The translations under genes were made by a program, and so were the position numbers. DNA of 64,000 nt from contig OZ076409.1 of NCBI GenBank assembly GCA_964187785.1, forward strand, positions 60,142,001 to 60,206,000, written 5' to 3'. The stretch is from Amphiscolops sp. MND2022 (lineage: Eukaryota). This document shows positions 6,050-62,405 of the stretch, one piece after another. Positions within the stretch are counted from its first letter, which is position 1. Each line of letters begins with the position of its first letter. The notes under the pieces were generated by a model. The model was not told where the DNA came from, did not search any database, and was given only the letters and a program-made list of their open reading frames with translations.

Positions 6050-6267
6050 AATGGAATCGAAACAGTGAAAGCAGCAATTTTACAGGACCAAGGAAGCTCG
6101 GACACCTTTTGAACTCTCAACTTAGCACAGATGCTCCAGATACCTACAACATCACAGCAATGGAATCGAAACAGTGAAAGCAGCAATTTTACAGGACCAA
6201 GGAAGCTCGGACACCTTTTGAACTGTCAACTTAGCACAGATGCTCCAGATACCTACAACATCACAGC
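6050..6267 (+). repeat. 109-bp tandem duplication in the BEL protease region
   Basis: AATGGAATCGAAACAGTG...CATCACAGC at 6050-6158 and 6159-6267, nearly identical. Confidence 0.9.
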
Positions 6268-8638
6268 AACGACGTAGCATTTCACACTTTGGATCCGACG
6301 ATAAAACGGACAGATGTTACATAATAAGCCCCATCACGTTAAAGATAAATGAAGGAGATGTTCACATGAAAGCAATTGTTGTACCCAAGATTTGTACACC
6401 GAAAGTTGCCAGCGCTATCGATACAGAAAAGAAGAGCAACTGAAGGACAAGACTAATGTAGAACCGGTCAACGAAGGAAGCTTAATCGACCTCCTCATTG
6501 CATCAGACATTTACTACTCAGTGGTAAAAGATGGAATCATCCCACTAAGCAATGGAACAGTCGCAGTAGAAACCAAAGTTGGATATCGTCTGTGGTGGCT
6601 CCACAGATTGACAGTTACTTCCCAACAACACAAACAGCTCTCATTGTTACTGACAAAGAACACATCGAAGAACCACAGCAGCTCTTCGAACGGATTCAAG
6701 ATGAGCTCCACGTTTGCCCAACACACGGTAATGAAATAGACGACTTCTACATGAATAGTCAAGAACCCGAAGATTGGAGAATATACAGCATCGCTACAAT
6801 GGACTCCCAAATGTGAAAAAGCAAAGATTCCGACAAATAGACACATAGCAAATCACAGAGCAATAAACATGATCGAGAAAATGTCAACCGACAAACAACT
6901 CTTCCAGAAGAAGCTGAACGACGTTTTTGGAGATTACCAACGACGTGGCTTCATCAGCCTGACGATCAACTACAACTACAACGACGGCAAGTGCAGCTAT
7001 CTTCCCTGGCATGCAATCTACAATGATAACTTCATTCACACCAAAATTAGTTTTGCCTCTGCGCCTGTTGCAGAGACAAACGACTGGGAATGCCACTCAA
7101 CGACTATCTCTGGAAAGGACCCAATTTGACAAACAGTCTGGTTGCATTAGTCCTCAGATTTCAACTACATCGGAGTGTCTTGACAGCAGCTTGAAAAATT
7201 TTTTTCTCCAAATGAAAATCAAAGAAGACCGAAGATACTTGAGATTCTACTACCTACGCAACTCAGAACACGAAGATCAAGGAACTGGATAACTAGATGT
7301 CTACCATTTCAACGTTAGCATTTTTGGATCTCGAGCATTTCCTTTCATCCTCGCAGCCGTTTTCAGCACCATCTACAGAAATACAACCTTGAGCACACAG
7401 CACTGAACATTGGAAGGAACATACTAAAGGACAATCTCGTCACTGGTACCGACACAGAAGAAGAAGCAAAAACGTATTTCGGAAGGACCAGGAAGATGTT
7501 TCCAGAAGCATCAATGAACATTCGCCAGTGGAATTCAAACCACACAAACATACGGAATCACGTGGAACAGCACTGAATTGCCGAAAAACGAGATCCTGGG
7601 ACTAGAGTGGACCACAATGGAAGATCAGTTATCACTGGATCTTTTTCAGCAACACTCGGAAGCGGTCTGGACAAAAAGAAAAAAAGTTCAGCTAGTTCGC
7701 GACATTTTTCGACACGTTTGAATGGACATCCCCAGCAACACTCAAAGCCAAACTCTTTATGAGAGACCTTTGGAAAGAAACTTGGACAGGGGACAAAGAC
7801 ATACCGAAACATAAGAAAAAAGAAAGGACTGCAATTGCCGCCGATTTAGCCAATGCAATAACATTCGTAAGACCAAGACACATATCAATTACAGAGAAAC
7901 ATCCCCTTGACATTTTGTAGATAGCTCGTTCGCAGCATACGCAGCAGTTGCCTACGTTAATAAGGAGCTTTACATGGCAAAGACCCGACTTGCCCCAGTA
8001 TCTCCAAAGACTATACCCGAACTCGAGTTGATGAGTTGATGGCAATGGCAACTCATCAAGACATCTCGGAACCATTGGAAAACGCAGTTTTCATCCCTAG
8101 AAAGCAAGAAGAACGAACAGAGGGTAAATCCGAAGATACCCTCGAGACAAGAACTCAACAGATAGGACACTATACAGCAAGAGAGGGTAGCCCAGAAGAT
8201 ACCCTCAACACAGACCACACTCAACGCAGTAAAAGACTCACGCCAAAACAGAGTAAACTTGAAGACGCCCTGTATCAGAATAGCTTAAACCCACCTGAAG
8301 TAACAGAGAAGATAGACCACTCAGGAACTTTATGCAATTTTTCAACACCCATTTTTGCTTTGTCAGGCCAGACACCCAAAACAGTAATCGACATGACACG
8401 CCACTCTAAGTTGAGAAAATTGATTCGGACTTGCGCTTGGATCAACCGTTTCGTGACAAGCTTAGAACAAACACCTCACAGCAAGAATAGTAACTCCATA
8501 GTCAAAACAGAACCCCAACAACTCACTCAAAGGGAAGAACGGACGGCATTTTTCAACATCATTCGTCAATCACAAGATACATCACACGCCAAAACTAAGC
8601 AACTTGGAAACTACACACCGAAGCTACACCTTGGAAAG

Positions 8639-10621: not shown

Positions 10622-11080
10622 TGTAGTGAACTCCAAATTTTATTGACTCACAATTATGAGTACTCACAAACTGACTCATTTTTTCTCTAAAACCAAATCA
10701 AAGACGCCAGATTTAATTTTCTCTTGAATGAAATTTTTCACTCTCCAAAATAACAACTGAGGTTCACATTATTTTCAACAAATCAACGTCTTCAGAAGGG
10801 AATCTACAAGGAACTTCAAGTGTTCTAAAGCTAGATCCACCTATTTTTCCTTCTTTGGCAACAAGTGCCACATTGAATTTGGATAGACGGTTCGTCGAAT
10901 AGAGTACAACTACAAACCCCTTTTTTCTTCAACGACAACCTTAATCAGGTTTATCGTTTAGTTTACATCATTGGAGCCCCTATAATTTCCCAGCGAACCT
11001 AATTCATTTTTTATCAAAACTCATTACAACGCAATCTTTCAAATATTTTATTTATTTTCGCGACGAGTGAGATTATGAAA
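10622..11080 (+). repeat. 3' LTR of BEL/Pao element
   Basis: Direct repeat of 4193-4655, preceded by a short purine tract GGGAG. Confidence 0.85.
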
Positions 11081-18149: not shown

Positions 18150-18305
18150 CCCTTAGGATACATATGCCGCAACGAATTAGCAAACTCTAGCGCTAGTTCG
18201 ATTAACAGCCAATAAAAACGCGTTATTATTTCAAATACGTGTTACGTGTTTTGCTCGTTACGCTGTGTGATTTGGCGTTACACGCAGTGATCAAAATACA
18301 GTATG
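18150..18305 (-). mobile_element. Terminus of repeat family B (Helentron-like hairpin end)
   Basis: Reverse complement of 55370-55521 and 21480-21563 (ATAACGCGT..ATTGGC..TTAATCGAACTAGC..CGTTGCGGC..ATGTATC). Confidence 0.6.
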
Positions 18306-18374
18306 TGACTATTTCACCAAAAAGTAGTAGAAGTGGACTGAGAATATGGAAACTTACAGTTGTTTCAATTTCGT

Positions 18375-21092: not shown

Positions 21093-21339
21093 GGTGACGG
21101 GCATTTTCTTATTAGCTGTGCGTACGGATACTCACAGAGCGTTCCGAAATGTATTCCTTTCGCTTTCTAACACGCTTTGGCGAGTAGCATTCTTTGCTTA
21201 TAGCCCACACAGCGACGTTTCGTTCTCGTTTACCCCCAAACACATGTATTAACATAACAAACTGACAGCTATTTTGTTCATAGATAAATATGACTTCAAG
21301 TTTTTTGTCCAAATGCGTACCAGACTAAAGTGAATTTCA

Positions 21340-21563
21340 ATCAAGTTCCGTATTGATGTTCGAAGTGGAAATTAGTCAAAGTGCGTAATTGAATATTGTG
21401 TAAAGAAGTCAAACCACGAATTTTAATCACTTAGTGAAACGATTAATCAAATAGTGTAATGAGTATCGGAACGTAATGTGTATTTAAAATAATAACGCGT
21501 TGTTATTGGCTATTAATCGAACTAGCAAGATCTTGCTAGTTCGTTGCGGCTCATGTATCGTAA
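21340..21563 (+). mobile_element. Repeat family B end with terminal hairpin
   Basis: Perfect palindrome CGAACTAGCAAGATCTTGCTAGTTCG followed by TTGCGGCTCATGTATCGTAA. Homologous to 18150-18305 (-) and 55370-55521. Confidence 0.6.
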
Positions 21564-21735
21564 AGTCCTAGTTCAGTTTCTGTTGGTAAGCGTTCCTGGA
21601 ATTTTCTTCAAAAGTACTCCATACGTAGTCAGGTCCAAAAAGGAACATTTATTTGATCTAATTTTCCTTTCTTCGCAACGGTCATTGAGAAATCCGATGT
21701 CAAAGTTTCTTTACTAATAAAGTCTCATATAAAGT

Positions 21736-22865: not shown

Positions 22866-25109
22866 TGTCACGACCCGCTCCCGGTCGAAATTTTACATGC
22901 TGCTCAGGAGTTGCAGGCTTTGGACGAGGACGTGGTCGAGGTTATTATACATACTAAACCTAAACTAAATTTTGCAAAGTTAAACTAACTCTACTTACAG
23001 TACAACCAAAATTATTCGTAGAAAGCTTTCTATAAGTGAAGTCTAACGTAAGACTTACGGAATATTTTCAGAAATGATTTAGGACTAGCCAAAGTTTCCG
23101 GTTTAATGTTTTCACGCGTAACGCTACTTTCATTTCCGGTATCGTCTTCTGAATTTTGTCATACTAATGTAAATACTAAAACAGAAACATTTTCCAATCG
23201 GGATCATTCTTCTTTTGTCCCACACTAAAATGAAAACACCAAAAATAATATTTATCTCCGAGATCCCAACGGAGTGCATACGATCTAAAATGAAAAACAT
23301 ACAAAGTATAGGGGAGTTATTTCTCCAGTAATGGAGCAGTTGTCAATATTCACTTGAAGCCTCAGTCAACTGATTTTAAGCAAATGTTTACAACGTTATG
23401 ACAGCGTCACTCAACTGAGCTAATACTAGGTGTTTCTATTTATATGGACCAATAGCGTCACTCTTCAAATGAACTATTTAGGCTTGCGCTGATAGAATTG
23501 AGCTCGGTTGCCCCTAGCAACGCCAATTAGCTAAGAGAAAGAGAATGAATTCGCCTACGCGCTCCGCTTTCTCTCTGACGGCCTCCGCAGCTCAGCTGTA
23601 ACTAATCTTAATACGTACGGAGCGACTACGGAGCGGATTGTAAAATTGTATTCCACTGGCTAGCTATAACTAATCTTAAGACGTACGGAGCGGCTACGGA
23701 GCGAACTGTAAATATGAAGTATTGGTACAAAAGGAATTATAACAAAATCTCCCTTTTTGAATTGACGCAGTTAGGTGATCTTTGGAATAGAACTTCACAT
23801 GAAGAAAAGTTGTACTGTAAGGAAAACTGAAGTACTAATTTGACGCTACCAAATGTAACATACGGTTGACTTACGTTGCAATTTACTCATCAACAAAAGA
23901 ACTTCGATTGATCAGCTTCATTTTATAGGAGATACATTGTGGTAATGAATTTGGGAAATGCAACGTAAGATCAGCGCACTTTCCGAATGCCTTCCTATAG
24001 TTCCTTGTATTTGTAACACTGCAATAATCACGAGTCGCTATCCAATTAATATCAGTCCGTTGCTAGTTTTGATAAGTGGAAACTTTTACACGATGCTCTC
24101 AATTTGTACAGAAATGATGTTTTATACAAACGGATTGTTCCCGTTGTAAATGCTAATGTTTTGTGTTTTAACCCATACTGGTGCTAAAGGTATGGTGAAT
24201 GTTCGTTTAAGTTATTGATTGTAATAGGCCGTTTCAGCATCGTTTGTTCCTTTCCAATATTTTAGGTTTTTGCCCATTTTTGAATTCATTCACTCCGTTT
24301 CATTTCCGTCAATATTTTTGAGCGTCATATTTTTGCTTCGAACATCGATTTCCTAACTTGGGAAGTGACTAATTGAACACGCCGGCGTTCTCTAGTCGAT
24401 GAAAATTTCAACTAGACTTTTAATTTGCGTATTACGGAACAACAAGTATTACGGAGCATCGACGCAACTAGAAATTTTGATACCTGCTTTAATGACGCGG
24501 GGCTGAAATAATTTGAATACTAAGCTGTTTTTGATGAACAAACCCGATTTTTAGGATACTTAGGAATTTTTAGGTGAGGAACAAATGATGCTAGAAGGGT
24601 ATAAATATGTTAGGTTTTCATGTAAATTCAGTTAGTTTTCTGCGATAACACACTGTTCAAACTGTTCTGTTTCTACAACAATATTCTTCGAAGAATTCAA
24701 TTTTGCCGAAGACTTTGAATTTTCAATCTGAAAAAGGACTACTAGAAGCCAGAAACGAAGAGCCATAGCTGAGTTAGCCTCAGGAGAGTTTGACACCTCA
24801 GAACACGAGAACATCCCGTCCGGGATTTAATTGCAAGTTCTAGAAAAGCTCCCAGAACTCGGCCTGAAAATCTAGACGTGACAAAAACTTCTCTGAGAAA
24901 AGGAACTCTAGCTGATCTAACAAAAATATTAGCTGAGAATCAAAAGGAAAGGCTCAAACTAATAGCACCTTTGAGTAAAAAACGTCCCATTTGTACCAAC
25001 GATCAGGGATCTGATTCTGGACTCGAAAACCTCGTTGCGAGAACGTCAACAACTGTTAAAACAACAACTGTGACTAGCTCTAGAACTACCCTAGTAAACA
25101 GTCGTAACA
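22866..25109 (+). repeat. 5' LTR (2244 bp)
   Basis: Collinear with 36833-39005. Carries an extra ~60-bp internal duplication near 23595-23710. Confidence 0.95.
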
Positions 25110-26153
25110 TGGTGACAGTCGTAACATGGTTCTCAAAGACTCCACAAATCCACCCACCAAAAGAACGAAACAACAACGTGCAACTAGCGAACAAACAAGA
25201 GACCGTCCCTCAACATCTAAAATACTGTCTTATCCAACCGCAGACATTCCCATCTGCCCTTCTACTCCCAATGCCGAAAGCGCTTACTGCTTCGCTCCCA
25301 GTTTTCGATGGTAAGTCCGAAAAGTTTGAACTTTTTCAGGACCTATTCAGAAACAACATCAAAATGTACCCTCATCTCACAGAGATTCAAAAAATAAATC
25401 ACTTTCACTCACTGCTACGAGGAAACGCGCTCCAAGGGTACTGTAACCTCGACGACACCAAAAAAGACAACCTGGAAGAAGTCATAACGGCTTTCAAAAG
25501 TCGTTCGGCGATTTCCAATCATCAGCTAAAACAAAACAAGATCCGAGTGGGACGCCCTACATTTCGACCCAACAAAACAAAAACTCCATGAATTTTTGGA
25601 CACATTGCAAAAAACGGCTAAAGAAGCCTTCGGATCTGAGGCACAAAAATTCATCGATAAAGCAATATACGCTAAAATGCCAGACCACGTTAAAAAGATC
25701 CTTAACAGGGCCTACTTAGAAGACAAGCCCTACAACGATATCGTTCTGCATCTTGAACGAGAGATGCAATTGAACGGACTAGGCGCGCCTGATGAAACGA
25801 CCCTAGTCCCTCTTAACACAGTGGACGCCGTAGTGACAGATGAAAAGAAAGAACAACAACAAAGAGGGTATTGCTTCCACTGTTGCAAATATGGCCACTA
25901 CAAGGCACATTGTCGCCGATTTCGAAAGGAGCGATACTACGCCAACACAAAACCAAACATTAAAGAGCCAAATCAAAATGAACCGCCAAAACCCAAATGT
26001 GATACGTGCGGAAAGATGCACAAAACCGAAAACTGTTGGGACGGAGGTAATGCTGCAAATGACCCCAGGAAACGCAAACGAGAATTCACCATCCCAACAG
26101 ATAAGATTGGGGAACAACCCGTACCTTCCAAGTCGACCCAACCAAAAAACTAA
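24735..26153 (+). pseudogene. gag: Gypsy gag (starts inside the LTR), frameshifted
   Basis: (M)TTRSQKRRAIAEL.. (ATG intact in the 3' LTR at 38640); LPVFDGKSEKFELFQDLF..QKINHFHSLLRGNAL; zinc knuckles CFHCCKYGHYKAHC and CDTCGKMHKTENC. Confidence 0.85.
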
Positions 26154-26220
26154 AATCGCCGCGCCTACGCTTTGGGGAAAAAGTAGACGCCAGGGCGTAC
26201 ACCATCGAATACCCCCCAAA
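26144..26220 (+). promoter_or_regulatory. -1 ribosomal frameshift signal (A AAA AAC plus stem-loop/pseudoknot)
   Basis: Heptamer at 26144-26150 directly before the gag stop. The -1 frame is open into ORF 26297. Stem GCGCCTAC/GTAGACGC; loop TTTGGGG is complementary to CCCCAAA (26214-26220). Confidence 0.75.
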
Positions 26221-29200
26221 TAGGTACGAAGAGGATTTTTTCACAGAATGTAACGAGGAACCAACTCAGGAGTGGCAACGTCGCTGGAACGTAGGCATGA
26301 TATTTAGACACAAAGCCAGACACCCAGACGATCCAACACAACTACCCCAAAGGATAACGGAGTCACCCGATAATTATGCAACACTCGAAAGACCTCTGCC
26401 AGAATCAAAAACCCAGCGCATTTACATATATGACAGAGACTATAGATGTGACCCTTGGGACGAACCAACCATCTATGACACAAAAAAACTCTCTTTCAAA
26501 ATCCAGGTTTCAAACCCTCAAGCCCAATCCTCTGAGATTACAAATTTACCATCACCGCCGTCACCAATCCTGAAAGGACAACACCGTCCCCGACAGTACC
26601 CGTCACCATTACGTCCACACCGATAGATGCAGAAAACATCATCTGGATCGATTATAAAACAATATGGGCACAACAAGAAAGAGACCAACGAGGGAAAACT
26701 GATCCTACAGTATCACTTCCAAAAACCGCGCCTGCCACAGCAATGACAAACGAGGACGAAGAAAAAACGGAATGCCTTTCAAAGCTACTCGAAAACTTAG
26801 ATGTAATCAAAGAATTCATCCAACACGACAAAGATTACGACTACATTCTGTTAATGTCCGCAATCACCCTCAAGAAGAAAAAACGAATGCTCTTTCTACC
26901 AGTTGAATTCAACACTGTCAAAATCGACGCCCTTGTTGACTCAGGTGCGTACATTAACGCTGTTAATGAAAGGGACGCTGAAAAACTTCGACAGAATGCA
27001 AGTCAATGCATCGTCAACAGAGCACCCCACCCCCTTTCAAAGTGCAGTACGCTAACGCTGAAATAGAACAACCACTCGCCACGTTTACCCTACGATTCAA
27101 AATAGGGGACTACACTTTTGAAGAAACGTTCATTGTCATGAACCAAACATCAGTCGCCATAATAGGCTTAGCATTCGTCCGAAAACACACCGCAATACTA
27201 GATACTGCACAAGGGAAAATTGACCTCCCGAAGATACAAATCACGATGGCGCTCACAGACGAAATGCAAAAGTGCAACCCCAAGCCCATCATGATCAAAA
27301 CGGAATCAAAACATACGATACCTGCACATGCCACACGCATAATCTACTTATCAAAACTAGTGAGTACCGAACATCCAATAACTGGAACAATCCAACCTCT
27401 ACCGCAATTTGACGAATGTTCAAAATTAATGATAGCTCCGGCAATAACAACTGGCAGAGATAAAAAGGTGGCATTAAAGATTGCCAATACAACCGACTTT
27501 CCTTATACAATAGCCACCGACACCAAAGTAGCTGAACTACGAATACTCAAACCGGAAGAAACGAAGATGGTTCGCCCAGTTGACATTGCTGCCCTCAATC
27601 TCCTCACAGAACACGACGACGTAGTAACGTACATCAACGCACTAATGCAAGTATAACGGCCGGAGGACAATGAAGAAAAATTCTGGTTTCCAACCCCAGA
27701 AAACCCCGGCAACGAACAAGAACATTCACCCACACAAAAACGCAATCTGAAAGAACTACGGGAACTCGCCGAACTGGAAAAACTCGATGCAACTCAAAAC
27801 GACGAATCCCAAATCGAGTTCCTTGCAATGTTCAAATGGACCGACTCACTAATCACGGGAAAAGATCGTAATAGCCTAGAAAACACAATTGTCGAATTCC
27901 ATGACATATTCGCCCGTCACAGATTGGACATCGGAATGAATACGCAGTTCAAAGTCAACTTAACTCCACAAGATGACAAACCAGTATACACACAAAGCCT
28001 ACCAGTCCCAATCACTCTCAAGGAAGATCTAACGGTAGAGCTGGCCCTCATGCATAGATATGGCATAATCACAACTCTCCCATTCTCCAAATATGCCAGC
28101 CCCATATTCGCACAATGGAAACCTAACGGCAAGCTGAGACTATTGGTGGACCTGCGAAAAATCAACGCCCTCATTACAGTTGACTACATCAACAACAACC
28201 ACCCGGTTAGCACCCTCTCAGATGCAGCACAACACCTAGCAAGGAAGAACTGTTCTGCAAACTCGACTGCTCCCAGGCGTATCACTGCCTCCAAAGGGCA
28301 GATCAAAAGTCAGAAGAATTACTTGCTTTAACTTTGCTAGTAGGGCGTTTGCCTATCGTCGCCTGGCACAAGGACTAAGTAGAGCGCTGTCAGCCTTCTC
28401 AAGCTTCATGCGGGAGTACCTCGACTCAGTAATCAAAGCAGATCAGTGTGCACAATACGTCGACGACATTGGCATAGCCGCAAATACAACGGAACAACTC
28501 ATCAAAAATATCAGAGCAGTCATCAAATGTATACGAAAAGTGGGATTAAAGTTGACCATCGAAAAATGCTATTTTGGTGTAACGCAAATCGAATTTCTCG
28601 GACGAACTATCACCCCAGACGGAGTAGCCCGGCAGGATCAAAAAATCAAAAATTTCCTCTCAAAAATTCGATTCCCTAAATCTAAAAAACAAGTCCAAAA
28701 ATACATCGGTTCCGTCAATTACTACCAAAACTACATACCGCGCTTATCAGAAACACTCATTGGTATGTAAGAACTGCTGAAAACCGACTCTAAAATTAGA
28801 ATCTCGGAAGAACTCGTCGATAACTTCAAAGAAATCAACGCCAGCCTAGCTGAAGCCTGTGGTCTTGCACTCAGACAACCCATAGCAGGGAAACAGTACG
28901 TCCTAATGACGGACGCAAGTTTTCGAGCATCATGCTACGCCCTAATGATAGAAGAAAATGATGAAAGAAAACTCCTCTCCAAAAAGAAAACTTTCGCACC
29001 TGTAGCGTTCGAGTCACGTGTTTCCTCACCAGCGCAACTAAAGATGTCAATCTACTGCAAAGAGTTTTTGGCTATATACCACGCATTCCTCGAATATAGT
29101 CACATCCTATAGGAAACAACAATACCGACACTAGTTTTGACAGACAACCGTTCAGTAACAAGATTTTTTTCCAGACAAAAACAACGCCGCCTGCACTTTG

Positions 29201-31347
29201 GAATGCCTGCGACTATGTCCTCCAATTTAAATTTCGAATCATGCACGTAGCAGGCTCCCAGAACACGGCAGCAGACTTTCTCTCAAGACTCGAACTCACT
29301 CTAAAAGAAAAAGTACAACTAGAGCTAAGAGATGACATCTCAACGTCACCAACAGAGGTCAACTTACAATCATCAGATGTTGCAGACGAAGAACAACTTT
29401 TCTTCCTGACAGATGAAGAAGAAGAATCCGAACAAGAAATTTTTGCCAGGAAATCACAAAGTAAACAACGGGCACAGGAAGAACACGAAAAAGAATTATC
29501 AACAAAAGTAGCTGAAGACATTAAGATACCTCTCAACTCCGCAGTCTACTCGTTCGGCGCAATCAAGGAAAACGCACGGATCAGAACCGAACAAGACGCG
29601 GATCCCCTCCTGAAAGCGTTGAAACTACGGATATCACACGAAGAATACGACAAGCACCTCCTTAAAACTAAACCAAGAGGACAAAATCTACTACGTCACA
29701 AAGAAAGAATCATAATGAAAGATGGAGTCCTATTGCGGAAGTACTACGGAGAAGACGGAACAGTCACACACAACCAAATCATAATCCCGCAACACCTAGT
29801 CCAGAAATTTTGTCCACGCTACATGGGAAAACAAACAAGCATCCAGGAATAACAAAAATGATACAGGAATGTAGCGCCAAATACTATTTCCCGGGACTAG
29901 CACGGAAAATCAGAGCCTGGGTAACTAGTTGTCCAAATTGCATTGCCAACAAGCGAATTGACAAGTGACAAATACGTCCCAAAATGCTGAGCAACACTGA
30001 ATTCACAATGGGACCAGAAGTTGCCATATTACCAAATTTACCATCATCCATTGGATTTCAACACATCATCACAATGATGGATGTCTTCTCACGCTACCTT
30101 TTTGCATACCCAACTCAAGATTTGACAGCAAAGACAGTGGCCCGTTGCATAATCGATGTAATGACACGACATTGCTATCTACCGACCATCATGCTCCAGA
30201 CAAAGGATCACAATTCAGATCAGAAGTGGTCAATCAGATAGCCCAAACGCTAGACATACGGATAAATCACGCATCGACAAAACATCCGCAAACAATAGGC
30301 ATATTAGAAAAAACGCATGCCTCTCTGAAGACTTCGTTAAAAATATCAACGGGAGAAGACAATCAATGTGGCACAAATATGTCTAAATCGCCGTCATGAA
30401 CTACAACACAAGCTATCATGAGAGCTTGGGCTGCGAACATACAACAGTGTTTCACGGATGCATTCCGTACAACATCTTAGACATCAAACTTCGATTAAAA
30501 CCCGAATGGAAAAAAGGCAACAACGAAGAATTAACGTACAAACTACAGAAACAAATAGCCGAGATCCATCAAGCCGCCATAGAGAATCTGATGCAATCAT
30601 ATCTCAACTACAAACAAAACTACGACAAGAAAGCGACTGCTACACCTCTCAAGGTCAACGTCTACTGCTACGTTTTAAACCAGAAAGCAGACAACCAGTC
30701 AATGAACTTCGCCTTCAAAGATTGCATCTGGACTGGTCCTTACGTAGTCGTTAAAGTGCTTTCAAACAACATTTATGTCGTACGTCGCACGGGTACACGA
30801 TACACGCAAACCCTCCATGGAATTCGCCTAAGACTATATGCGCCCAATCAGCGAGTACCTGACGTAACCGTCAGAAGGGAAGATTACCTTCCAGATTCAG
30901 AGTTAAAACAACCCACAATGTTTGGTACGCGCAAGCTTGGGAAACCGAATTCGGATGAGCTCTGTTCGGCACGCCTACGGAAAATTCAATAGAAGAAGCT
31001 ACAATCACCGAAATCACAGACAAGACAGATGATGACGCAACTACAACGGAAAATGAAGTGGCTAAAACTGCTATAGATGAAAACTCTAATGGGGATAAAA
31101 CATCCTCCGATAACGTTACGTCATTTAATCTGTACGTCACTGACAATCCTTGTGTTTTGACTCCACCGCCTATACAAAGCCCTCCACACTAAAAAAACTC
31201 CCGAGCTACCTCCTATAGTTGTCGGATACAATCCTAGGAAAGTAGGAATATACAACTTACGACCTAATCCGAGAACTAATGTGAATCCTGACTTCAAAAT
31301 GCTCGACTCAGTGACTACGGAAGACTCACGTCAAAATCATAACTAGA
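26150..31347 (+). pseudogene. pol: Gypsy pol (PR-RT-RNase H-IN), disrupted
   Basis: PR ALVDSGA; RT SKYASPIF..LRLLVDLRKINA, KLDCSQAY, YRRLAQGL, QYVDDI; RH TDAS; IN HHCC (LHGK..HPGI..CPNC) and core MDVFSRY..DKGSQF..HPQTIGILE; W.GPY.V. Several stops and frameshifts. Confidence 0.95.
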
Positions 31348-31531
31348 TGAAAAGTTTCAGCATATCAAACCAAACCGGAGTGGCAACTTTAAATTTTTCA
31401 AACTCGCTAAAGCTACAAAACCAAAAAACGGACAACTAACGTGCCCTAAAGATATACAACAAGAGGATACCAGCACGTCATAAATACAGTTATAAAGAGT
31501 CACAGTCAAATGAGCGTCAATATATCAATCG

Positions 31532-34500
31532 CTAAAAGAGTTTCCCAATCTTATGATAAATAGTAGGATCAGGATTACCTCCCTTTGAGTTAGTCTTCAC
31601 CTTTTTTCCTCCACTGCCCTTCATAGATGATCCGCAGGGCTTACTCGCGGACTTAATAGACGAAACAGACGCAGCAACATTCTTTGCAACTGACTTGGGA
31701 CTTACTCTTTTCACCATCTTCGAACTGACTACGGAACTTGTACTGCTCCCAGCATCAGTTGAATTGCCAACTTGACTGTCGCGAGAACTCCGGTTTGCTT
31801 TATTGCACTCAAGATAGTATGTCTCACAACTTTGGCGTCGCTCCAACAAATACCTCTGGAATAAGGATTTATAACGTTCCACAAAAACAGCGACATCACT
31901 CAGTCGAAACTTTTTCCACACATCAACATCACCACTGACGAAGAAGACTCCTGCATTCGCAAAAGCCACCTGAATAGCATTGAGGATAGACCAAGAAAAA
32001 AATAATTGCGGATTGAAACCCGAGCCGAGGACGTGAGACACTACCATCAGACCACAGTTTTGGACCATCACCTGATTAAGCGTACTGCCAATTAAATCGA
32101 TGGTCACAGCAGGAGGATCGCTATAAGGTGTCTCAACAACACAACAGATCTTGAATAATCGCAAAATATGCGTACGGGACTGAAAACCAAAGTCCCGTAG
32201 AAGAAACTGCACCACATCATGAATCCCACTTGCAGCGTATGTAGCATTTTCGTGATGCCTCCGTCTCTCCACATTATAACTCTTATATTCAGGAGAGGCA
32301 GCTTTCAACTCATCCGAAGACAACACGTTGCATGTCGAGAATAACTCACAAAGTGAATTGAACAACTCAAACACATGCTGGTCATCACCCTCTAACATAA
32401 CTTCCGGGCAAAAACTGTACAGCCCGCGTGAGATGCCAGATGTCACGGTTACGTTATCCAGAATCAGGAACACAAACCGATCGATGCATTCTCGACACTT
32501 AACACGGAATACTCGCATTTCACCCGTCTTCGTAGCAGCCAAATCACGTCCGAAATCACAATCCATCAGGAACTCTTCCACAGCAATAACACCAAAAGCT
32601 GACAATTTGGACGTGTCCATATAACTTTCCCATTCATGGATGCCAGGCAAATCGGACAGTCTGCGGGTCCTCATCAGCAAACAATAAACGAAATTGCACA
32701 CCTCGCCGTACCCACGGAAAGCATAATCTGATCGGCATTGTCGCAACTTTCCGAAGTTAATGTAGTCTAAAACAAAACACGAGGATACAATTAAAAGAAA
32801 GTGAAGGCACGGAAGAAAGCAACTAAAACAAAGCAGAACAATAGCAGACAACAGTCCCAAATAACGGTAATCCTGATAAACTAATCACAGTCGTCAGTCA
32901 GAACCACGGACACACAACAGAAAAACATCATACTTACGGGTGTCTAGAAGCAATCGCAGGAAACCGAACCGATAAACGATCAGGCTATCGGAAATCAGTT
33001 CAAAGTCGGTACCTCTTAACTAAAACACAACAATTATCCTATAACAATGTCAAGGCAAAAACAATGACACAGATACCACCCTACCCAAAAAAGACCCAAA
33101 ACCCAAACCTTAAAGAGGAAACAACCCACAAAAATAAAAAACTTACTCGATCGACGGTACTCTTGAAGTGAGGATGGCCAGTGTAACGGATATAAGGACG
33201 GATCGAGGACTAAAGTTCAATCACATCACTCAAGACATCTCGCAGATCACTGAATGCAACGGACCCCTCACGGATACACTTCCGCAAGAGAGGCCTATCT
33301 TCGGTCCAGTCTTCATAAAGAGACCCCTTCAAACGATGAACGACGTACTCGAGGGCTGTTGTCACCTCCAGCATACCAAACACGTCCTGATGTGACTGCC
33401 GAAAACACTGAAGGAACACATTTTCATAAAATGACCTCAACACCATAAATCGACGTCCGTCAGCTCGATTATCATCCATTACGCGGATGAGAGACGGACT
33501 CCCACTAACAACTGACACAGGGAGCTGCTCTCCCTCGAAACAAGTCATCACCTCAGCTAACGGAAGGAGTTCGGGATCGGGCACCTTCTGATCTAAAGAC
33601 TGACTGCCGACACAGATTTTTTTGAGACTTGTCCCATTCGCAAAGGACATAAGAGCGCTCCACACTGCCCACCTTTTCGAACTATACCCCGTACTCCTTG
33701 AACGACTTCACATCATTGACCATCAACCGAAGAACCCGCGGTGCTAATCACTGACAGAGGAAGGACTAAAACACAAATACAGAATATTAACAATGCGTAA
33801 ACAACCGACCGCCTACTCCCATTTATCACCATTCCCCTGGTTTTACGTGACAAAACGCGGGAAAACTACTATTAAACACATTCAACTTATAACGGTCTCC
33901 AAACGGCTCCACCGCAGAGAGAATCCAGGTTCCCTTTCGCCCAAAGTAGCACAAGAGTGACCCCACAGACGTCGAAGGTAGTCGAAATCGCCGCCGTTTC
34001 GGAGGAATTCACAAAAACAGGACACCAGCGTCATAAAGGGCACCTTCGAATCAGCCCTATTATGCTTCGGCAAGAGATCTTCTGGAAACGGGTACTCCCC
34101 GCTCAAGTCCACAAAAGGCACGCTGATCATCCGACAACTCCATGGGCTCCATCAACCTGTTCAGATTTTGTAAGCCCATGTGAACCCAGTAGGTGACATC
34201 CCTGAACCAATGCGCATCAGAACGGAAACATCGACTAAACCCTCCAGAGCCATGCGCTTTCATGGCCACATCACGTCCACACACACGGCAGTGGAAATGC
34301 ATCGCCTCTCCGGTCTTGGCCCCAGTCACAAAGTCGGCGAAAGCAGGATGACGGCTCTACATACGACGAAGGAGCTCATTTCGACTACTGTATTTCTTTT
34401 CAGGACGCTTCGCCAGTCGACTCTCCACCTTCTCGCTAAGCTCTTGAAACTTTGCAAAACACATACATGCTGCCAAGAAAGGAAAACACAGTCCTATAAT

Positions 34501-35582
34501 GAGACACGTATGGTACGATTCACTGATTCAACATACAAACGCCAACCCTGAGACAATACACCGGTAGTGAAATACTAACCACTTTGAATAGTCAAAGAAG
34601 TCCTATCCTTCACTTCCTCCGCGAGCTGACGGCCCAACAACACTACATCTTGAGGACTCAGCGACACCCCTCCGGATCGGTACAGCTGTTCATCGTCCTG
34701 ACCTACATAACAGCAATAGAACTACACCAAAGAAAAAAACCCATACAGAATGCTATCATACACTATGTGAAACAACAAGTTCAAAGCATTATAACTCACA
34801 ACCCAGTACAACCTGAAGAAAAACAGAGACGGAAACAAAGCGCAATTCAACTAACTTTGCCAACCACTCAGACAATGTGTCAAAGGAGGAGGAGACGGAG
34901 GTGTCGGAACAGTTTTCCGTGCGCGTTTTGTTGGCGTTGAAAAATTAACGGCAACCTCCCGGGTCACACTACTCCTCGGATCTAGAAACCAAAAAGACAT
35001 CTGAATGCGTGCCCTTTTTCTCTACCATGAACAACAATTGGGCAATCAACAGAATACCAACCGGATTTTTTGTTGCCGGGGGATCAGTCTCACCTTCTTG
35101 AGACTCACTGTCAGCATCCTCAGCAGTATCGAATGTTGTCGATTCTGTCCTGGTCTGAAGAGGGATTGCAGCCAGTGGAACTTCAGACACAGGCAACACA
35201 GAAGTTAACACATCGTTAACGGAACAAGAAGAATTAGGGGCAAGAATAGTGGAAACTGAAGGCAACACAACAGTTCCAGAAGTATTAGTTCCCGTTGCTG
35301 CTACGGAAGTAACAGCAGTGGAAGTGCCAGGTTGAGGAACTGAAAATCAAGATCAGGATTTCAGACGCGTCAGAAAATCGGGTGAGACTAAATTGGCTGA
35401 TCACCAAAAAACACGTCCTAACACCCATGAAAGTCAGAAAGATTTTACCAACCTGAAGCATTTTTAACATTTTCTTCCTCCGAATAAACCACATCATCAT
35501 CGGAGTAACAGAAATTGGTTTCGTTCCCACTGACAAAACCAACAGCTGTGAGAGTAGGAGGAACACTCTCATCATTCTCCAT
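31532..35582 (-). pseudogene. Antisense 7-exon gene inside the Gypsy element; zinc-finger protein, probably hAT-transposase-derived (~1080 codons, a few disablements)
   Basis: Exons (-): 35582-35453, 35339-34856, 34702-34580, 34469-33891, 33765-33147, 33019-32938, 32766-31532. Donors GTTGGT, GTTAGT, GTTAGT, ATAAGT (mutated), GTAAGT, GTAAGT. Pyrimidine-rich YAG acceptors. Phases 1,1,1,0,0,1 match at every junction. Motif HFHCRVCGRDVAMKAHGSG..SDAHW. The confidence is for the gene structure; the hAT origin is less certain. Confidence 0.8.
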
Positions 35583-35869
35583 TTTGAGAAATTACAGCAG
35601 AAATCTTCAAGATAATCAAAAGAAAAAAAGAAATCAAGAAAGAAGAAACTACGCTGAGTAAGCGTAACCACCCAGAAAACATTAGCAACGTCATCCCTAA
35701 CTATTCAGGAAAGATACAAATTCTTCAACTTCACTGAAAGGCCTACTAAGGCATTGACGGGAACAAAACGTTTCCAAAAATCCTACTGGTGAATAATATT
35801 CATAAAGAAGCTCTGAAGAAAACCCTCTCAAAAGCCATTTTAGAAATTACGTTTCGTAAACGTATTCTT

Positions 35870-36120
35870 TTCGAGGAAATTGATGACGTCATAACGACGC
35901 TGATGAAAGAAAATGGAATTAGGACGAAGATTTCCTATTTTGACCAATCACAGCGAAGATAAACATTCATCGCCTTAAAAGGTCAGGACGGACCAGAACG
36001 AAAGCGGGAAAATCAACCAATAAAAATTTGAAGAAAGCCACGATGGAAAAGAAATTGAAACGATCATTTGTCGTCCAATTTCCATAGAAGCTTGACCAGC
36101 ATCTCTCGCCAATCTAACTC
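35870..36120. promoter_or_regulatory. Putative bidirectional promoter of the accessory cassette
   Basis: Lies between divergent ATGs (35582 minus, 36183 plus). CRE TGACGTCA 35884-35891; CCAAT at 35944 and 36017 plus two more downstream; E2F-like GCGGGAAA 36004-36011; CHR-like TTTGAA 36027-36032. Confidence 0.5.
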
Positions 36121-36182
36121 TACAATTTTCTACACAAACTTCTGAAACCTCCTCGCAGAAATACCGAAATCAAAATCTAAAA

Positions 36183-36596
36183 ATGAACGGCTACTCACTT
36201 GTGATAGACATATCTTCTGATGAAGAAAATACGCGCCATAGCACTCCGATAAAAACCCTGCCACTCAACTTGGTCAGGACGCTGAACATCAGCGACTCAT
36301 CTACAGAAGTCTATCGCGGTAGCGATGCGGAACTAAATTCCAGTTTTGAAACCAAATGCTCTCCGAAAAGAGTAAAATTGACCCCCCGAAAGAGGAAAGC
36401 ATCAAGAGTAACTTTTAACCTGCTACCTACCGTCTGTAAACAGAAAAATAATTTGGAATCTGATTCCGATGATTTTTATGAAGAACTGGACTCGCTCGAG
36501 AAAGCAGCTCCTCTCAAAACTTCACAGAAGGCAAACGTCTACCCAACGCAAAGGGAAAAACGCAAGCAACTCTCTAAACGACTTCAGCGAACCTAG
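36183..36596 (+). CDS. Accessory ORF, low-complexity protein with SIM-like motif and NLS (probably originally longer, to ~36750)
   Basis: AAAATG context. LVIDISSDEE near the N-terminus, PKRVKLTPRKRK, acidic ESDSDDFYEE. Coding-like text continues in an overlapping frame up to just before the PPT. Confidence 0.55.
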   Translation: MNGYSLVIDISSDEENTRHSTPIKTLPLNLVRTLNISDSSTEVYRGSDAELNSSFETKCSPKRVKLTPRKRKASRVTFNLLPTVCKQKNNLESDSDDFYEELDSLEKAAPLKTSQKANVYPTQREKRKQLSKRLQRT

Positions 36597-36832
36597 AAAG
36601 AAAACGCCACAAGAATACCATGAGGAATTATGCTCCCCTGAGGCTCAAGAACACTTTGAATAAATAGTTCGCGAACTAGAACAAGAGGAAAGGAAAATCA
36701 CGTACATGACTGCGGGGAGAGGACGCGGCCCTCACCAAATACGAGACTAAATCAGCCGGCCCCCTGTTGTGATAAAGAAAAAAATTCCTCACTGCCATGG
36801 TTTTCCCGTATCTTTGGCATCAAGAGGGGCCC

Positions 36833-39005
36833 TGTCACGACCCGCTCCCAGTCGAGATTTTACATGCTGCTCAGGAGTTGCAGGCTTTGGACGAGGACGT
36901 GGCCGAGGTTATTATAAATACTAAACTGAAACTAAACTTTGCAAAGTTAAACTAATTCTACTTACAGTACAACCAAAATTAATCGTAGATAACTTTCTAG
37001 AAGTGAAGTCCAACGTAAGACTTACGGAATATTTTCAGAAAAGATTTAGGATTAGCCAAATTTCCGGTTTAATGTTTCCATGCGTAACGCTACTTTCATT
37101 TCCGGAATCGTCTTCTGAATTTTGTCACACTAATCTAAATACTGAAACAGAAACAATTTCCAATTGGGATCATTCTTTTTTTGTCCCACACTAAAATGAA
37201 AACACCAAAAATAATATTTATCTCCGAGATCCCAACGGAGTGCATACGATCTAAAATGAAAAACATAGAAAGTATAGGGGAGTTATTTCTCCAGTATTAG
37301 AGCAGTTATCAATATTCACTTACAGCCTCGGTCAAGTGATTTTAAGCAAATGTTTACAACGTTATGACAGCGTCACTCAACTGAGCTAATACTAGGTGTT
37401 TCTATTTATACGGACCAATAGCGTCACTTTTCAAATGAGCTATTTAGGCTTGCGCTGATAGAATTGAGCTCAGTTGCCCCTAGAAACGCCAATTAGCTAA
37501 GAGAAAGAAAATGAATTCGCCTACGCGCTCCGCTTTCTCTCCGACGGCCTCCGCAGCTCAGCTATAACTAATCTTAATACGTACGGAGCGACTACGAAGC
37601 GGATTGTAGAACTGTAAAGATGAAGTATTGGTACAAAAGGAATTATGACAAAATCTCCCTTTTTGAATTGACGCATTTGAGTGATCTTTGGAATAAGACT
37701 TCACATGAAGAAAAGTTGTACTGTAAGAAAAACTGAAGAACTAATTTGATGCTACCAAATGTAAAATACAGTTGACTTACTTCGCATTTTACTCATCAAC
37801 AAAACAATGTCGATTGAATAGCTTCATTTTATAGGCGATACCAAGTGGTAATGAAATTGGGAAATGCAACGTAAGATCAGCGCACTTTCCAAATGCCTAC
37901 CTATAGTTCCTTGTATTTGTAACACTGCAATAATCACGAATCGCTATCCGCTTAATACCAGTCCGTTGCTAGTCTTGATAAGTGGAAACTTTTACACGAT
38001 GCTCTCAATTTCTACAGAAATGATGTCTTATACAAACGGATTGTTCCCGTTGTAAATGCTAATGTTTTGTCTTTTAATCCATACTGGTTCTAAAGGTATG
38101 GTGAATGTTCGTTTAAGTTATTGATTGTAATAGGCCGTTTCAGCATCGTTTGTTCCTTTCCAATATTTTAAGTATTCCCCATTTTTGAATCCCTTCACTC
38201 CGTTTCATTTTCGTCAATACTTTTGAGCGTCATAATTTTGCTTCGAACATCGATTTCCTAACTTGGGAAGTGATTAATTGAACACGCCGGCGTTCTCTAG
38301 TCGATGAAAATTTCAACTAGACTTTTATTTTGCGTATTACGGAACAACAAGTATTACGGAACATCGACGCAACTAGAAATTTTGATACCTGATTTAGTGA
38401 CGCGGGGCTGAAATAATTTGAATCATAAGCTCTTTTTGATGAACAAACCCGATTTTTAAGATACCTAGGAATTTTTAGAAAGGGAACAAATGATGCTGGA
38501 AGGGTAGAAATATGTTAGGTTTTCATGTAAATTCAGTTAGTTTTCTGCGATATCACACTGTTCAAATTGTTCTGTTTCAACAACAATTTTCTTCGAAGAA
38601 TTCAATTTTGCCGAAGTCTTTGAATCTTCAATCTGAAAGATGACTACTAGAAGCCAGAAGAGATGAGCCATTGCTGAGTTAGCCTCAGGAGAGTTTGAGA
38701 CCTCAGAATCCGAGAAAATCCCGTCCGGTGATTTAATTGCAAGTTCTAGTAAAGCTCCCAGAGCTCGGCCTAAAAATCTAAACGCGATAAAAACTTCTCT
38801 GAGAAAAGAAATTCTAGCTGATCTAACAAAAATATTAGCTGAGAATCAAAAGGAAATGCTCAAACTAATAGCACCTTTGAGTAAAAAACGTCCCATCTGT
38901 ACCAACGATCAGCGATCTGATTCTGAACCGTTGCGAGAACGTCAACACCTGTTAAAACAACAACTGCGACTAGCTCTAGAACTACCCCAGTAAACAGTCG
39001 TAACA
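36833..39005 (+). repeat. 3' LTR (2173 bp)
   Basis: Collinear with 22866-25109. Preceded by the PPT and followed by TSD CCTGG. Confidence 0.95.
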
Positions 39006-55229: not shown

Positions 55230-55521
55230 ACTTTGATTGTTTTTCACTTTCAAAGTGAATTCCAGTCAAAATGTGTACCAGGTAAAAGTGTAAAATAATC
55301 ATTTTCCTCCTTCGTGTGTGAAGTGGAAATCAGTTATAGTACGTAATTGCAGAGAGTGTAAAGTAGTAATTTACTGTATTTTGATCATTACGCGTAACAC
55401 CAAATAACAGAGTGTAACGAGCAAAACAAATAACGCGTATTTAGAATAATGACGCGTTTTCATTGGCAGTTAATCGAACTAGCAAGACCTTTTTAATCCG
55501 TTGCGGCATATGTATCGCAAT
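55230..55521 (+). mobile_element. Repeat family B copy
   Basis: Homologous to 18150-18305 (reverse) and 21340-21563. GTGTAAA.TA.T subrepeats. Confidence 0.6.
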
Positions 55522-55699
55522 GTCAGCGAAACACATTTATGATCAGACGAGCGAGGAGTCAAAACAACCTGATATCACCAAGTCTGAGCGTGAAATGCAG
55601 TTTAATTTTAGCGAAGAGAACTGTCGACTACAGGCCGATAATCCTTTGAAAAAATTTATAGAATCAAACTTGGTCATGTTTTGTAGGTAACATGACTAG

Positions 55700-59926: not shown

Positions 59927-60662
59927 TATCTTAATATATCGCAGATGGCTATAATTTTTTTCATTTTTATTAAAATTTTAGCAAGGTGATTCAAACATTT
60001 TATTTTTAGATCGTATGGTATGGGCAAGTCGTCTCCGAAGGAAGACTGGCGTCCACTTGCAACCAAAAATCCGCAGCTCAGGGGAAGCTTGAACCTGCTA
60101 CTTATATAAAAGATCGAATAATCCAAATTCTGCAGAAATTTGGCATTGGAAATTTTGACCGATTCGTTTGCGTTATGTCATTCGTTTCACGTTCTCAATA
60201 TTCTCGCTAAGAAGCTAATTGGAATTGACGCAGATTTTTCTGTTCCCGAAGATGATGAAACTGGAGCTGAATTGGACGACATTTTTGCGTTAGGTTATCT
60301 TAATATATCGCAGATGGCTATAATTTTTTCATTTTTATTAAAATTTTAGCAAGGTGATTCAAACATTTTGTTTTTAGATCGTATGGTATGGGCAAGTCGT
60401 CTCCGAAGGAAGAATGGCGTCCACTTGCAACCAAAAATCCGCAGCTCAGGGGAAGCTTGAACCTGCTACTTATATGAAAGATCGCATAATCGAAATTCTG
60501 CAGAAATTTGGCATTGGAAATTTTGACCGATTCGTTTGCGTTATGTCATTCGTTTCACGTTCTCAATATTCTCGCTAAGAAGCTAGTTGGAATTGACGCA
60601 GATTTTTCTGTTCCCGAAGATGATGAAACTGGAGCTGAATTGGACGACATTTTTGCGTTAGG
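59927..60662 (+). repeat. ~368-bp tandem duplication inside the hAT element
   Basis: 59927-60294 and 60296-60662 are nearly identical. ORFs 60140 and 60508 share the same N-terminus. Confidence 0.92.
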
Positions 60663-61482
60663 GGTCTCAGGAGAAGTCAAAACTGCTGTTAAAGGCCTCA
60701 AAAAACCGTCAAATCTTCAGGATTTTCTAGCAATTCAAAAGATAAAACAACCAGAATTGAAATCATCACCGTTGAAGCCAATGCTCGCAAATGCAACAAG
60801 ATGGAATTCTACTCATCTCATGCTTAATCGATTTTTAGTTTTGCAAAAGTCCATTACCGCGTTTACTCAGAATAGTTATAATTGGGACGAAATCAAGAAG
60901 CTAAGAGATTTACTTCATCCATTGTACGAGGTAACCATGAAACTGCATAGTGGAATTGAGAAATCTGCTCACCCGTTTGATTTTTATATTCAGTGCGTTG
61001 ATTACATTCGATCATTATTGCAACAAGAAAAGTCTCTGACCGACGTTAGGATACCCGTTATGCAGCTTCTTATCAAGTGGTGTGGTAACGTTGTCATACA
61101 AGCATTTAAGGAATCTGGTCCATTGTATGACAAATTGATTGGTATGGTATCTGAAGTCGATAATTCGCCAAATTCAAGGGCTGACGATCATCCGTATACT
61201 GCCGATTTGAATAGTTCATTTGACGCCTATTTAGCGAAGCAAGGGAATTGTCCAGTTGATCAATTGGTTACGTCAATTTTGGCTGATATTCCCGTTTCAA
61301 ATTCTGATTTGGAACGTTTATTCAGTTATGCAAAGTTTCTGAAAACTTCAATTCAAAGTCGCATGGATCCAGAGACTTTTACTCGTAACGTCTTTCTGAA
61401 GATGACTGAGGAGCTAACTTTGGTTGTTAGTATGAACACTGCCGCGCCAAAGGTGCTAACTCCAATTGTAATTGACAATTGA
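60508..61482 (+). CDS. hAT transposase C-terminal half (5'-truncated, uninterrupted frame)
   Basis: 324-aa ORF with HSFHVLNIL, NATRWNSTHLMLNRFL, LRDLLHPLYEVT and the dimerisation motif IPVSNSDLERLFS..QSRMDPE. Confidence 0.85.
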   Translation: MALEILTDSFALCHSFHVLNILAKKLVGIDADFSVPEDDETGAELDDIFALGVSGEVKTAVKGLKKPSNLQDFLAIQKIKQPELKSSPLKPMLANATRWNSTHLMLNRFLVLQKSITAFTQNSYNWDEIKKLRDLLHPLYEVTMKLHSGIEKSAHPFDFYIQCVDYIRSLLQQEKSLTDVRIPVMQLLIKWCGNVVIQAFKESGPLYDKLIGMVSEVDNSPNSRADDHPYTADLNSSFDAYLAKQGNCPVDQLVTSILADIPVSNSDLERLFSYAKFLKTSIQSRMDPETFTRNVFLKMTEELTLVVSMNTAAPKVLTPIVIDN

Positions 61483-62179: not shown

Positions 62180-62405
62180 ATAATGTGGGGCATATGCGAT
62201 GTATGCACGCTCGCCCTCACCGTCGCAAAGACCAGCTTCCACTACGATCGCTTCCCTTGGGGCCGCTTATATTCCCATCTTGCTAAGCGAGGTCGAACAG
62301 GAGCAAAGACCTAGCGGGAACGGAGATCGCGAAGCGATCGTAGTGGGAGCTGGCCTTTGCGACGGTGAGGGCGAGCGTGCATACACCGTATATGCCCCGC
62401 ATTAT
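62180..62405. mobile_element. GC-rich foldback/MITE with ~75-bp inverted arms
   Basis: 62180-62254 is the reverse complement of 62331-62405 with about 5 transition mismatches and a ~76-bp spacer. Confidence 0.8.

Follow-up and report, generated by a model that had tools for sequence, protein, structure and literature searches.

A seven-intron antisense gene carried by a Gypsy retrotransposon lineage of Amphiscolops sp. MND2022

The antisense gene and its host element

A Gypsy long terminal repeat (LTR) retrotransposon occupies positions 22866-39005 of a 64,000-nucleotide stretch of the Amphiscolops sp. MND2022 genome (contig OZ076409.1, positions 60,142,001 to 60,206,000). This whole stretch is called the window below. 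Between pol and the 3' LTR of the element, on the minus strand, lies a gene comprising 8 coding exons and 7 introns. An earlier inspection of the DNA letters (the sequence-only reading) had placed an antisense gene at this location, in an element bounded by a target-site duplication, and both the LTRs and the CCTGG duplication are confirmed by our analysis. We consider it nearly certain that a lineage of animal Gypsy elements with multiple subfamilies carries such a gene (8 coding exons, ~1090 amino acids) in a tail-to-tail arrangement with pol, and that this gene is copied along with the element and maintained under purifying selection.

The 5' LTR (22866..25109, plus strand, 2244 nucleotides) and the 3' LTR (36833..39005, plus strand, 2173 nucleotides) both have TG..CA ends and are 93.9% identical over 2172 aligned columns. 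The 5-bp CCTGG duplication flanks the element on both sides, preceding the 5' LTR and following the 3' LTR. Directly after the 5' LTR comes a sequence starting with TGG that resembles a primer-binding site, and a short tract rich in purines, which may be a polypurine tract, is located before the 3' LTR. The region comprising gag and pol (25110..31346, plus strand, start approximate) is interrupted by stops and frameshifts in the window copy, whose pol yields Pfam matches for reverse transcriptase (RT) and for the C-terminal part of integrase. The order of RT, RNase H and integrase, which is that of Gypsy elements, was established by Pfam matches in the uninterrupted relatives L022 and L033. 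The pol stop codon is located at 31344-31346, and the end of the antisense gene is 185 nucleotides away.

Read along the minus strand, the antisense gene starts with exon 1 (35453..35582), which carries the ATG and is followed by intron 1 (35340..35452, 113 nucleotides, phase 1). Exon 2 (35062..35339) encodes a low-complexity linker rich in Ser, Thr and Ala whose frame is broken in the window copy. It is separated by the 80-nucleotide intron 2 (34982..35061) from exon 3 (34856..34981, 126 nucleotides), which encodes a basic TPTKRARK-like motif and a proline run. Intron 3 (34703..34855, 153 nucleotides, phase 1), exon 4 (34580..34702, 123 nucleotides) and intron 4 (34452..34579, 128 nucleotides, phase 1) precede exon 5 (33891..34451), which is broken in the window copy and includes a putative CxxC..H..H zinc finger with a conserved region after it. 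Beyond intron 5 (33766..33890, 125 nucleotides, phase 0), exon 6 (33147..33765) is likewise broken in this copy and is predicted to encode an RNase H-like alpha/beta domain followed by helices. Intron 6 (33020..33146, 127 nucleotides, phase 0), exon 7 (32938..33019, 82 nucleotides) and intron 7 (32767..32937, 171 nucleotides, phase 1) lead to exon 8 (31532..32766), which is stop-free in the window copy and encodes a predicted all-helical domain (~335 amino acids) with a disordered tail rich in Ser and Lys. The T content of the introns is 0.45-0.47, compared with 0.29-0.30 for the exons.

This model retains much of the sequence-only reading, which had correctly given the lengths of its exons and of its six introns and the letters at each donor and acceptor; exons 1, 3, 6 and 7 in its own numbering are also free of stops, as it had stated. 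However, its total of six introns overlooked the 80-nucleotide intron at 35061-34982, which lies inside what it regarded as exon 2. Furthermore, the junction it had read as TIQS|ACMC is formed in the family by an acceptor 18 nucleotides downstream, such that the exon begins from 34451. Its single decayed donor, ATAAGT, is that of intron 5 and is canonical in 20/20 copies from elsewhere in the genome, but the family acceptor of intron 4 is also decayed in the window copy. Both corrections to the exon model were made post hoc from the alignment of copies. The reading had counted about three frameshifts and several stops in the window copy, which agrees with the 3 non-triplet indels relative to copy L014 and the several stops that we observed, in addition to the two decayed splice sites. 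A pyrimidine-rich AG located 18-35 nucleotides upstream of the ATG (~35600-35640, minus strand) is present in 17 of 21 sequences and absent from the window copy. This acceptor-like site suggests a further intron in the 5' untranslated region.

Some smaller features of the host element were also recorded. A short tandem duplication at 25097-25127 spans the end of the 5' LTR and the putative primer-binding site, and a 68-nucleotide tandem repeat (23594-23712) is present in the 5' LTR only. Ahead of RT, the pol stretch 26982-27653 (plus strand) gives a weak match, below the cut-off, to PF04797 (herpesvirus dUTPase-related, E 0.005) and could possibly hold a dUTPase-like domain.

Conservation, selection and module exchange

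The 1.07-Gb genome contains Wnt genes, which marks the host as an animal. A search of it yielded 48 matches, from which 20 near-full-length copies with 72-92% identity were taken and the other 28 were left out. Pol adjoins the antisense gene cassette in 20/20 of these near copies, and an LTR match follows the cassette in 18/20, the exceptions being L001 and L006. When the seven-intron model is applied to the 20 copies, the donor is GT in 139/140 cases and the acceptor is AG in 135/140. The newly added intron 2, which is GT..AG in the window, has GT in 20/20 copies and AG in 19/20. Five of the 20 copies splice in silico, unedited, into an open frame of 1088-1091 amino acids, and the same five uninterrupted copies stop at amino acids 177-179 if intron 2 is left unspliced. 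The sequence-only reading had suggested testing further copies for an intact spliced frame and GT-AG sites, and the predicted product is close to the ~1080 amino acids it had estimated for a spliced accessory gene propagated by the family. In a chance control, 234 of 824 dinucleotide columns in intron interiors were also identical in at least 18 of the 20 copies, and therefore splice-site conservation among the near copies constitutes modest evidence. Two of the copies are rearranged. Copy L007 (1-3600) matches the end of the pol query only, ~2.6 kb farther from the cassette than usual, and in copy L011 (4-775) a duplicated piece of the cassette replaces part of pol.

The gene also lies behind pol in antisense orientation in 5/5 distant subfamilies, whose last exons show 37-60% identity and which have the core junctions in common. 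In L023, which has one nonsense codon, 7/7 introns are GT-AG with phases 1,1,1,1,0,0,1 as in the near copies, and their lengths differ (66-170 nucleotides). This agreement is a stronger test of the gene model than that offered by the near copies. The frames of L022 and L033 stay open across the three core introns (859 and 833 amino acids, respectively), whereas L021 has one stop and, as judged by eye, apparently one intron fewer in its N-terminal part. When copies were chosen by the last-exon protein alone, integrase DNA was continuous by eye in 29/30 copies (at least 96% identity and at least 400 amino acids) and in 34/34 copies comprising the top rows of a second search. No cassette was found outside Gypsy elements among the copies checked. 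With pol adjoining the cassette in 20/20 near and 5/5 distant cases, the concern that the cassette might be missing from other family copies, or be a one-off nested insertion, is removed.

In a representative protein library, 415 homologues of the last exon were obtained at E <=0.001. Two that were tested are 100% identical to the Amphiscolops sp. MND2022 genome, whereas the best identity in this genome for homologue P0127 is 35%, and this protein probably stems from another genome. Longer homologues of the last exon were not found in a dedicated search. Within the genome, last-exon matches are stop-free in 79 of 102 scored (a set that favours best hits), and an initial screen gave 4,170-8,479 unverified candidates in each search. 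Library proteins P0152 and P0153 read in frame across intron 5, from which it follows that gene callers yield partial, intron-retaining versions of the antisense gene. HECT clusters returned for P0152 by the ESM Atlas (0.76) were dismissed as noise.

Measured against L014, the ratio of nonsynonymous to synonymous substitution rates (dN/dS) for the core of exons 1-8 is 0.07-0.27 for the window copy and for eight others that are moderately distant. The corresponding values are 0.07-0.19 for pol and 0.20-0.38 for the disordered tail. The window and L014 are 76% identical in exons and 63% identical in intron interiors. The antisense accessory gene is conserved about as strongly as pol, and the comparison suggested with the sequence-only reading, of dN/dS and of exon against intron divergence, thus indicates purifying selection. 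Three points count against this assessment of the gene. The dN/dS values come from 15 of 26 sequences, compared with L014 in well-aligned blocks only; dS is saturated for distant pairs; and the five intact copies noted above are 98-99% alike and hence are not independent. Very close pairs (L015, L016 and L019) give unstable dN/dS values of 0.15-2.5 on few changes.

The ATG of the antisense gene is arranged head-to-head with that of a second accessory open reading frame (ORF), which is intronless and lies on the sense strand (36183..36920, plus strand, end approximate). This sense ORF stops at 36596 in the window copy, while uninterrupted copies encode 233-290 amino acids and end ~90 nucleotides inside the 3' LTR. 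Its product is of low complexity, with basic and Gly/Arg-rich stretches and a Gly/Arg-rich end, and it matches no Pfam family. The dN/dS values of 0.07-0.30, obtained at high dS, indicate conservation at the protein level. The 600-nucleotide gap between the two ATGs (35583..36182) contains CCAAT in 21/21 sequences and TGACGT in 19/21 (raw counts, without a chance control), and is a putative two-way internal promoter.

In L014, L022 and L023, pol is 97-99% identical, compared with 46-68% for the last exon of the antisense gene. Between copies L014 and L015, the DNA is 98-99% alike outside the sense ORF and ~60% alike within it. Moreover, trees of pol and of the cassette (15 of 26 sequences, rooted on L021 and L032) reject each other in approximately unbiased (AU) tests (p 1e-59 and 0.001). 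Pol, the antisense gene and the sense ORF are exchanged as modules, the sense ORF independently of the antisense gene. Subfamilies with near-identical pol but very different cassettes therefore represent a natural experiment on the role of the cassette. Although the sequence-only reading had recognized that the element carries the gene, it missed the adjacent sense ORF, this swapping of modules, and the likely transposase ancestry considered in the following section.

Protein features and possible transposase ancestry

The predicted antisense product begins with a low-complexity portion that bears the basic motif (exons 1-4), continues with the finger (exon 5) and the exon-6 domain, and ends with the all-helical region and its Ser/Lys tail (exon 8). 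The four zinc ligands of the finger are well preserved among homologues (C 35/37, C 35/36, H 37/37 and H 35/37). Pfam returns weak C2H2 matches for the finger, including those of KIN17 and jaz type (3/37 members each, best E 0.003-0.44), and no zf-BED match among the finger homologues. A structure model of exon 6, made from the L014 exon, has three strands, a helix, a strand and a helix, which corresponds to an RNase H-like topology. When this model was used in a Foldseek search, the Hermes hAT transposase occupied ranks 1-3 of 350,542 chains (E 0.013-0.023), with the top match aligned over 193 columns. The idea of a hAT relationship had been recorded ahead of this search. A VIA search with the same model returned mostly RNase H-like folds among its top rows (Z 5-6.5).

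An N-terminal BED-type zinc finger followed by an RNase H-like core with a helical insertion is the architecture of hAT transposases, which belong to the insertion-domain transposases. Hermes (PDB 4d1q, 8sjd and 8edg) has an N-terminal CxxC..H..H finger, an RNase H-like core and a long helical region after it, and the product predicted here may have a comparable series of parts. True hAT transposases are plentiful in this genome, as 150 matches were obtained. Several that have long ORFs were recorded (L024-L031), of which L030 is a version of L026 with an internal deletion. Overall, fold and finger provide a weak-to-moderate lead towards a transposase origin. We judge it moderately probable that the antisense gene derives from a DDE-type DNA transposase, and derivation from a hAT transposase specifically is possible but falls somewhat short of probable.

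A number of observations weigh against this ancestry. The exon-6 model is of middling quality (pLDDT 70, pTM 0.41), and the structure models cover exon 6 and the last exon separately. The Hermes match has E >0.001, a TM score of 0.28 and a root-mean-square deviation of 17, and the 50 VIA rows listed do not include Hermes. Profile comparison with seven genomic hAT transposases by hhalign recovered the finger only (E 0.07) and nothing for exons 6 and 8. Pfam searches with the exons and their homologues gave no family above the cut-off, including no hAT family (PF05699), although PF05699 does score in true hAT transposases of the same genome. The model of the last exon found no match in the PDB, VIA or viral structure libraries, the lists being filled by one long helix. 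Finally, of the first two presumed positions of the DDE catalytic triad, located by eye from the strand ends of the exon-6 model, one has Glu instead of the expected first Asp in 41/44 sequences, and none of the six commonest residues at the other is acidic.

A Cys/His pair is found after the core (C 46/57, H 52/57), but its spacing is CxxxxH rather than the CxxH that follows the core in hAT transposases, including the genomic hATs of this species. By the features tested, the protein falls outside the hAT transposase family, because the presumed catalytic Asp pair is absent and the sequence profiles and last-exon model are without a match. Unlike a hAT transposon, the gene has no significant sequence match, PF05699 domain, expected Asp pair or convincing inverted repeats, and it rides inside a retrotransposon. 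Inverted repeats bracketing the cassette were sought at 30900-36900 in one decayed copy, where no convincing pair was detected and an 8-bp duplication was not searched separately. The best bracketing pair among the best 25 of 61 pairs is 12 nucleotides long and A/T-rich.

Other searches were similarly unproductive. PF04195 (Retand TRP28) has no match in the exons or their homologues, PDB sequence-profile searches returned nothing significant, the ESM Atlas gave no usable match for the last exon, and an IMG/VR search gave no match. A search of the genome for PF14291 had no match, but its control gave none either. The single JGI metagenome match (L034) was rejected, as it is bacterial-looking (deaminase/Nudix-like by reading) and shares the search motif alone.

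Possible roles and comparison with known systems

The RNA that is reverse transcribed during retrotransposition is the opposite strand to an antisense gene, so antisense introns escape the spliceosome. Thus, the introns of the gene described here survive because the genomic RNA carries them in opposite orientation. This logic leads to the expectation of an intron-bearing gene against the genomic RNA and an intronless ORF along it, which is the pattern seen.

We propose that a DDE-type DNA transposase gene could have been inserted backwards into a Gypsy element, after which its inverted repeats and catalytic residues would have been lost while the gene was retained with its introns. Spliced mRNA would be produced from an internal promoter in the 600-nucleotide gap, and the product might enter the nucleus through its basic motifs. 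There, the dead transposase scaffold, comprising the zinc finger and core, would bind the DNA of its own element and keep transcription on. We tentatively favour, with appreciable doubt, the view that the product acts as a subfamily-specific nuclear transactivator or anti-silencing factor. The high diversity of the cassette and the incongruent trees are as expected of a specificity module; however, ordinary template switching without an arms race can also yield module swapping, which counts against this view. The full scenario, in which a domesticated dead hAT-like transposase with introns kept by its antisense orientation is expressed from a two-way promoter as an exchangeable, subfamily-specific factor that aids spread of the lineage, is rather unlikely to hold in every part. 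If the domesticated-transposase scenario is true, it would offer a specific explanation of where antisense accessory ORFs can come from and would supply a candidate for a counter-defence protein encoded by an animal transposon.

Additional ORFs in antisense orientation, located between pol and the 3' LTR, have been published for plants and for Botrytis, and are described as being of unknown origin and function and as lacking similarity to other transposons (PMC7264820). The plant antisense ORFs (maize Grande gene23, rice RIRE2, Retand TRP28/PF04195 and PvRetro13) have the same position and orientation as the gene described here and are likewise found in most copies with pol-like conservation (PMC7264820, PMC11963269). 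Grande gene23 is described as having its own promoter and a nuclear product, resembling the promoter and nuclear location proposed above, and the PF04195 domain of Retand is named Transposase 28 (PMC7264820, PMC11963269). In contrast to these plant ORFs, the gene described here resides in an animal host, has seven coding introns, encodes 1090 amino acids with a finger and RNase H-like core, and lacks PF04195. The word intron is not used in PMC11963269. In fungi, the antisense extra gene brtn of Boty-like Gypsy elements from Botrytis and Sclerotinia also lies between pol and the 3' LTR, according to the passages of PMC7264820 and PMC8365987 that cite it.

Among animal comparators, the accessible text on Burro (PMC6431247), the ORF3s of bdelloids (PMC5408684) and the env of Tor with its internal promoter (PMC4402516) notes no antisense multi-intron gene. 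A survey of mostly open-access literature, without Repbase, Dfam or supplements, revealed neither a multi-intron antisense gene in any animal Gypsy element nor a transposase captured in this manner. The antisense layout is already known from plant and fungal Gypsy elements, and the animal seven-intron version appears to be new. The sequence-only reading, which did not recognize the architecture from animals, was in keeping with this result, but the layout is less unique than it implied. A functional analogy, and no more, is offered by VANC, an anti-silencing protein that the VANDAL elements of Arabidopsis encode as an accessory and that acts specifically on its own transposon family. Unlike the element described here, VANDAL elements are DNA transposons of plants, and the ancestry of VANC has been traced to a MAIN-like protein of the host (PMC6719617, PMC13547354).

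Alternative roles and origins must also be considered. The protein might act in integration, by tethering the pre-integration complex to chromatin or aiding nuclear entry through transposase-derived DNA binding. The same anatomy of finger and RNase H-like core would serve this purpose, as would the basic motifs, and nuclear import is suggested for plant antisense ORFs in PMC7264820. However, the cassette recombines freely against nearly identical integrases, which suggests that tight co-evolution with pol is unlikely, and we regard an integration role as unlikely.

It is quite unlikely that the product is instead an RNA factor, comparable to Rev or CERV, that exports or protects unspliced genomic RNA. 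An animal precedent exists in the CERV protein of C. elegans Cer1, which is produced from a five-exon mRNA and needed for export of the genomic RNA, as reported in PMC10309623. In being a nuclear accessory protein that an animal Gypsy element encodes in several exons, CERV resembles the product proposed here, and the KIN17- and jaz-type matches of the finger could also be taken in favour of an RNA factor. Those finger matches are weak, however, and CERV is a splice product on the sense strand that has exons in common with gag, whereas the antisense gene is separate and unrelated to it in sequence as tested. Moreover, the sense ORF next to the antisense gene, whose product has a Gly/Arg-rich end, is an equally good candidate for such a function.

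In the VIA search, the best rows comprise RNase H-like proteins of a generic kind (Argonaute, Pelota and actin-like; Z <=6.5), and together with the lack of a hAT match at the sequence level these could point to a captured host gene or an orphan whose RNase H-like fold is of another kind, such as nuclease or PIWI-like. Against such an origin, which we also consider quite unlikely, stand the order of finger, alpha/beta core and long helical region that fits insertion-domain transposases, the first rank of Hermes over 193 columns in Foldseek, and the restriction of the checked copies to Gypsy elements.

A nested DNA transposon carried as a passenger, still mobile or not yet lost, might be anticipated from the possible transposase ancestry and the abundance of hATs in the genome. 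This reading is largely refuted and extremely improbable, given that all checked copies have the cassette at the identical site and orientation, purifying selection equals that on pol, the expected catalytic Asp pair is absent, and the search for bracketing inverted pairs, which also speaks against the cassette having terminal inverted repeats of its own as the sequence-only reading had considered, gave no convincing pair. A similarly remote alternative is that antisense transcription restrains the element through double-stranded RNA and the protein is incidental, an effect that PMC7264820 describes for micropia and gives as a proposal for plant elements. The end of the gene 185 nucleotides from the pol stop is compatible with this, but strong selection at the amino-acid level and conserved intron phases mean that a functional protein is required. 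An RNA-only effect is contradicted as the sole role and may coexist with a role of the protein.

Whatever its function, the antisense gene is represented by hundreds of scored copies, with 1090 amino acids, seven introns, selection of the same strength as that on pol, and a fold that points, on weak evidence, to a dead DNA transposase. ORF-based repeat annotation overlooks such genes, and gene annotation may label them as multicopy host genes.

Elsewhere in the window, a pair of direct repeats (4193-4655 and 10622-11080) is 80% identical and 6.4 kb apart with A-rich ORF fragments between, and is probably another, older LTR element. Inverted-repeat elements and dispersed repeats resembling miniature inverted-repeat transposable elements are found at 413-681 and 1525-1792, at 18157-18317, 21307-21567 and 55265-55524, and at 62180-62434. 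At 59927-60662 and 60490-61482 (plus strand), a 368-nucleotide tandem duplication (98%) overlaps the start of a 330-amino-acid open frame.

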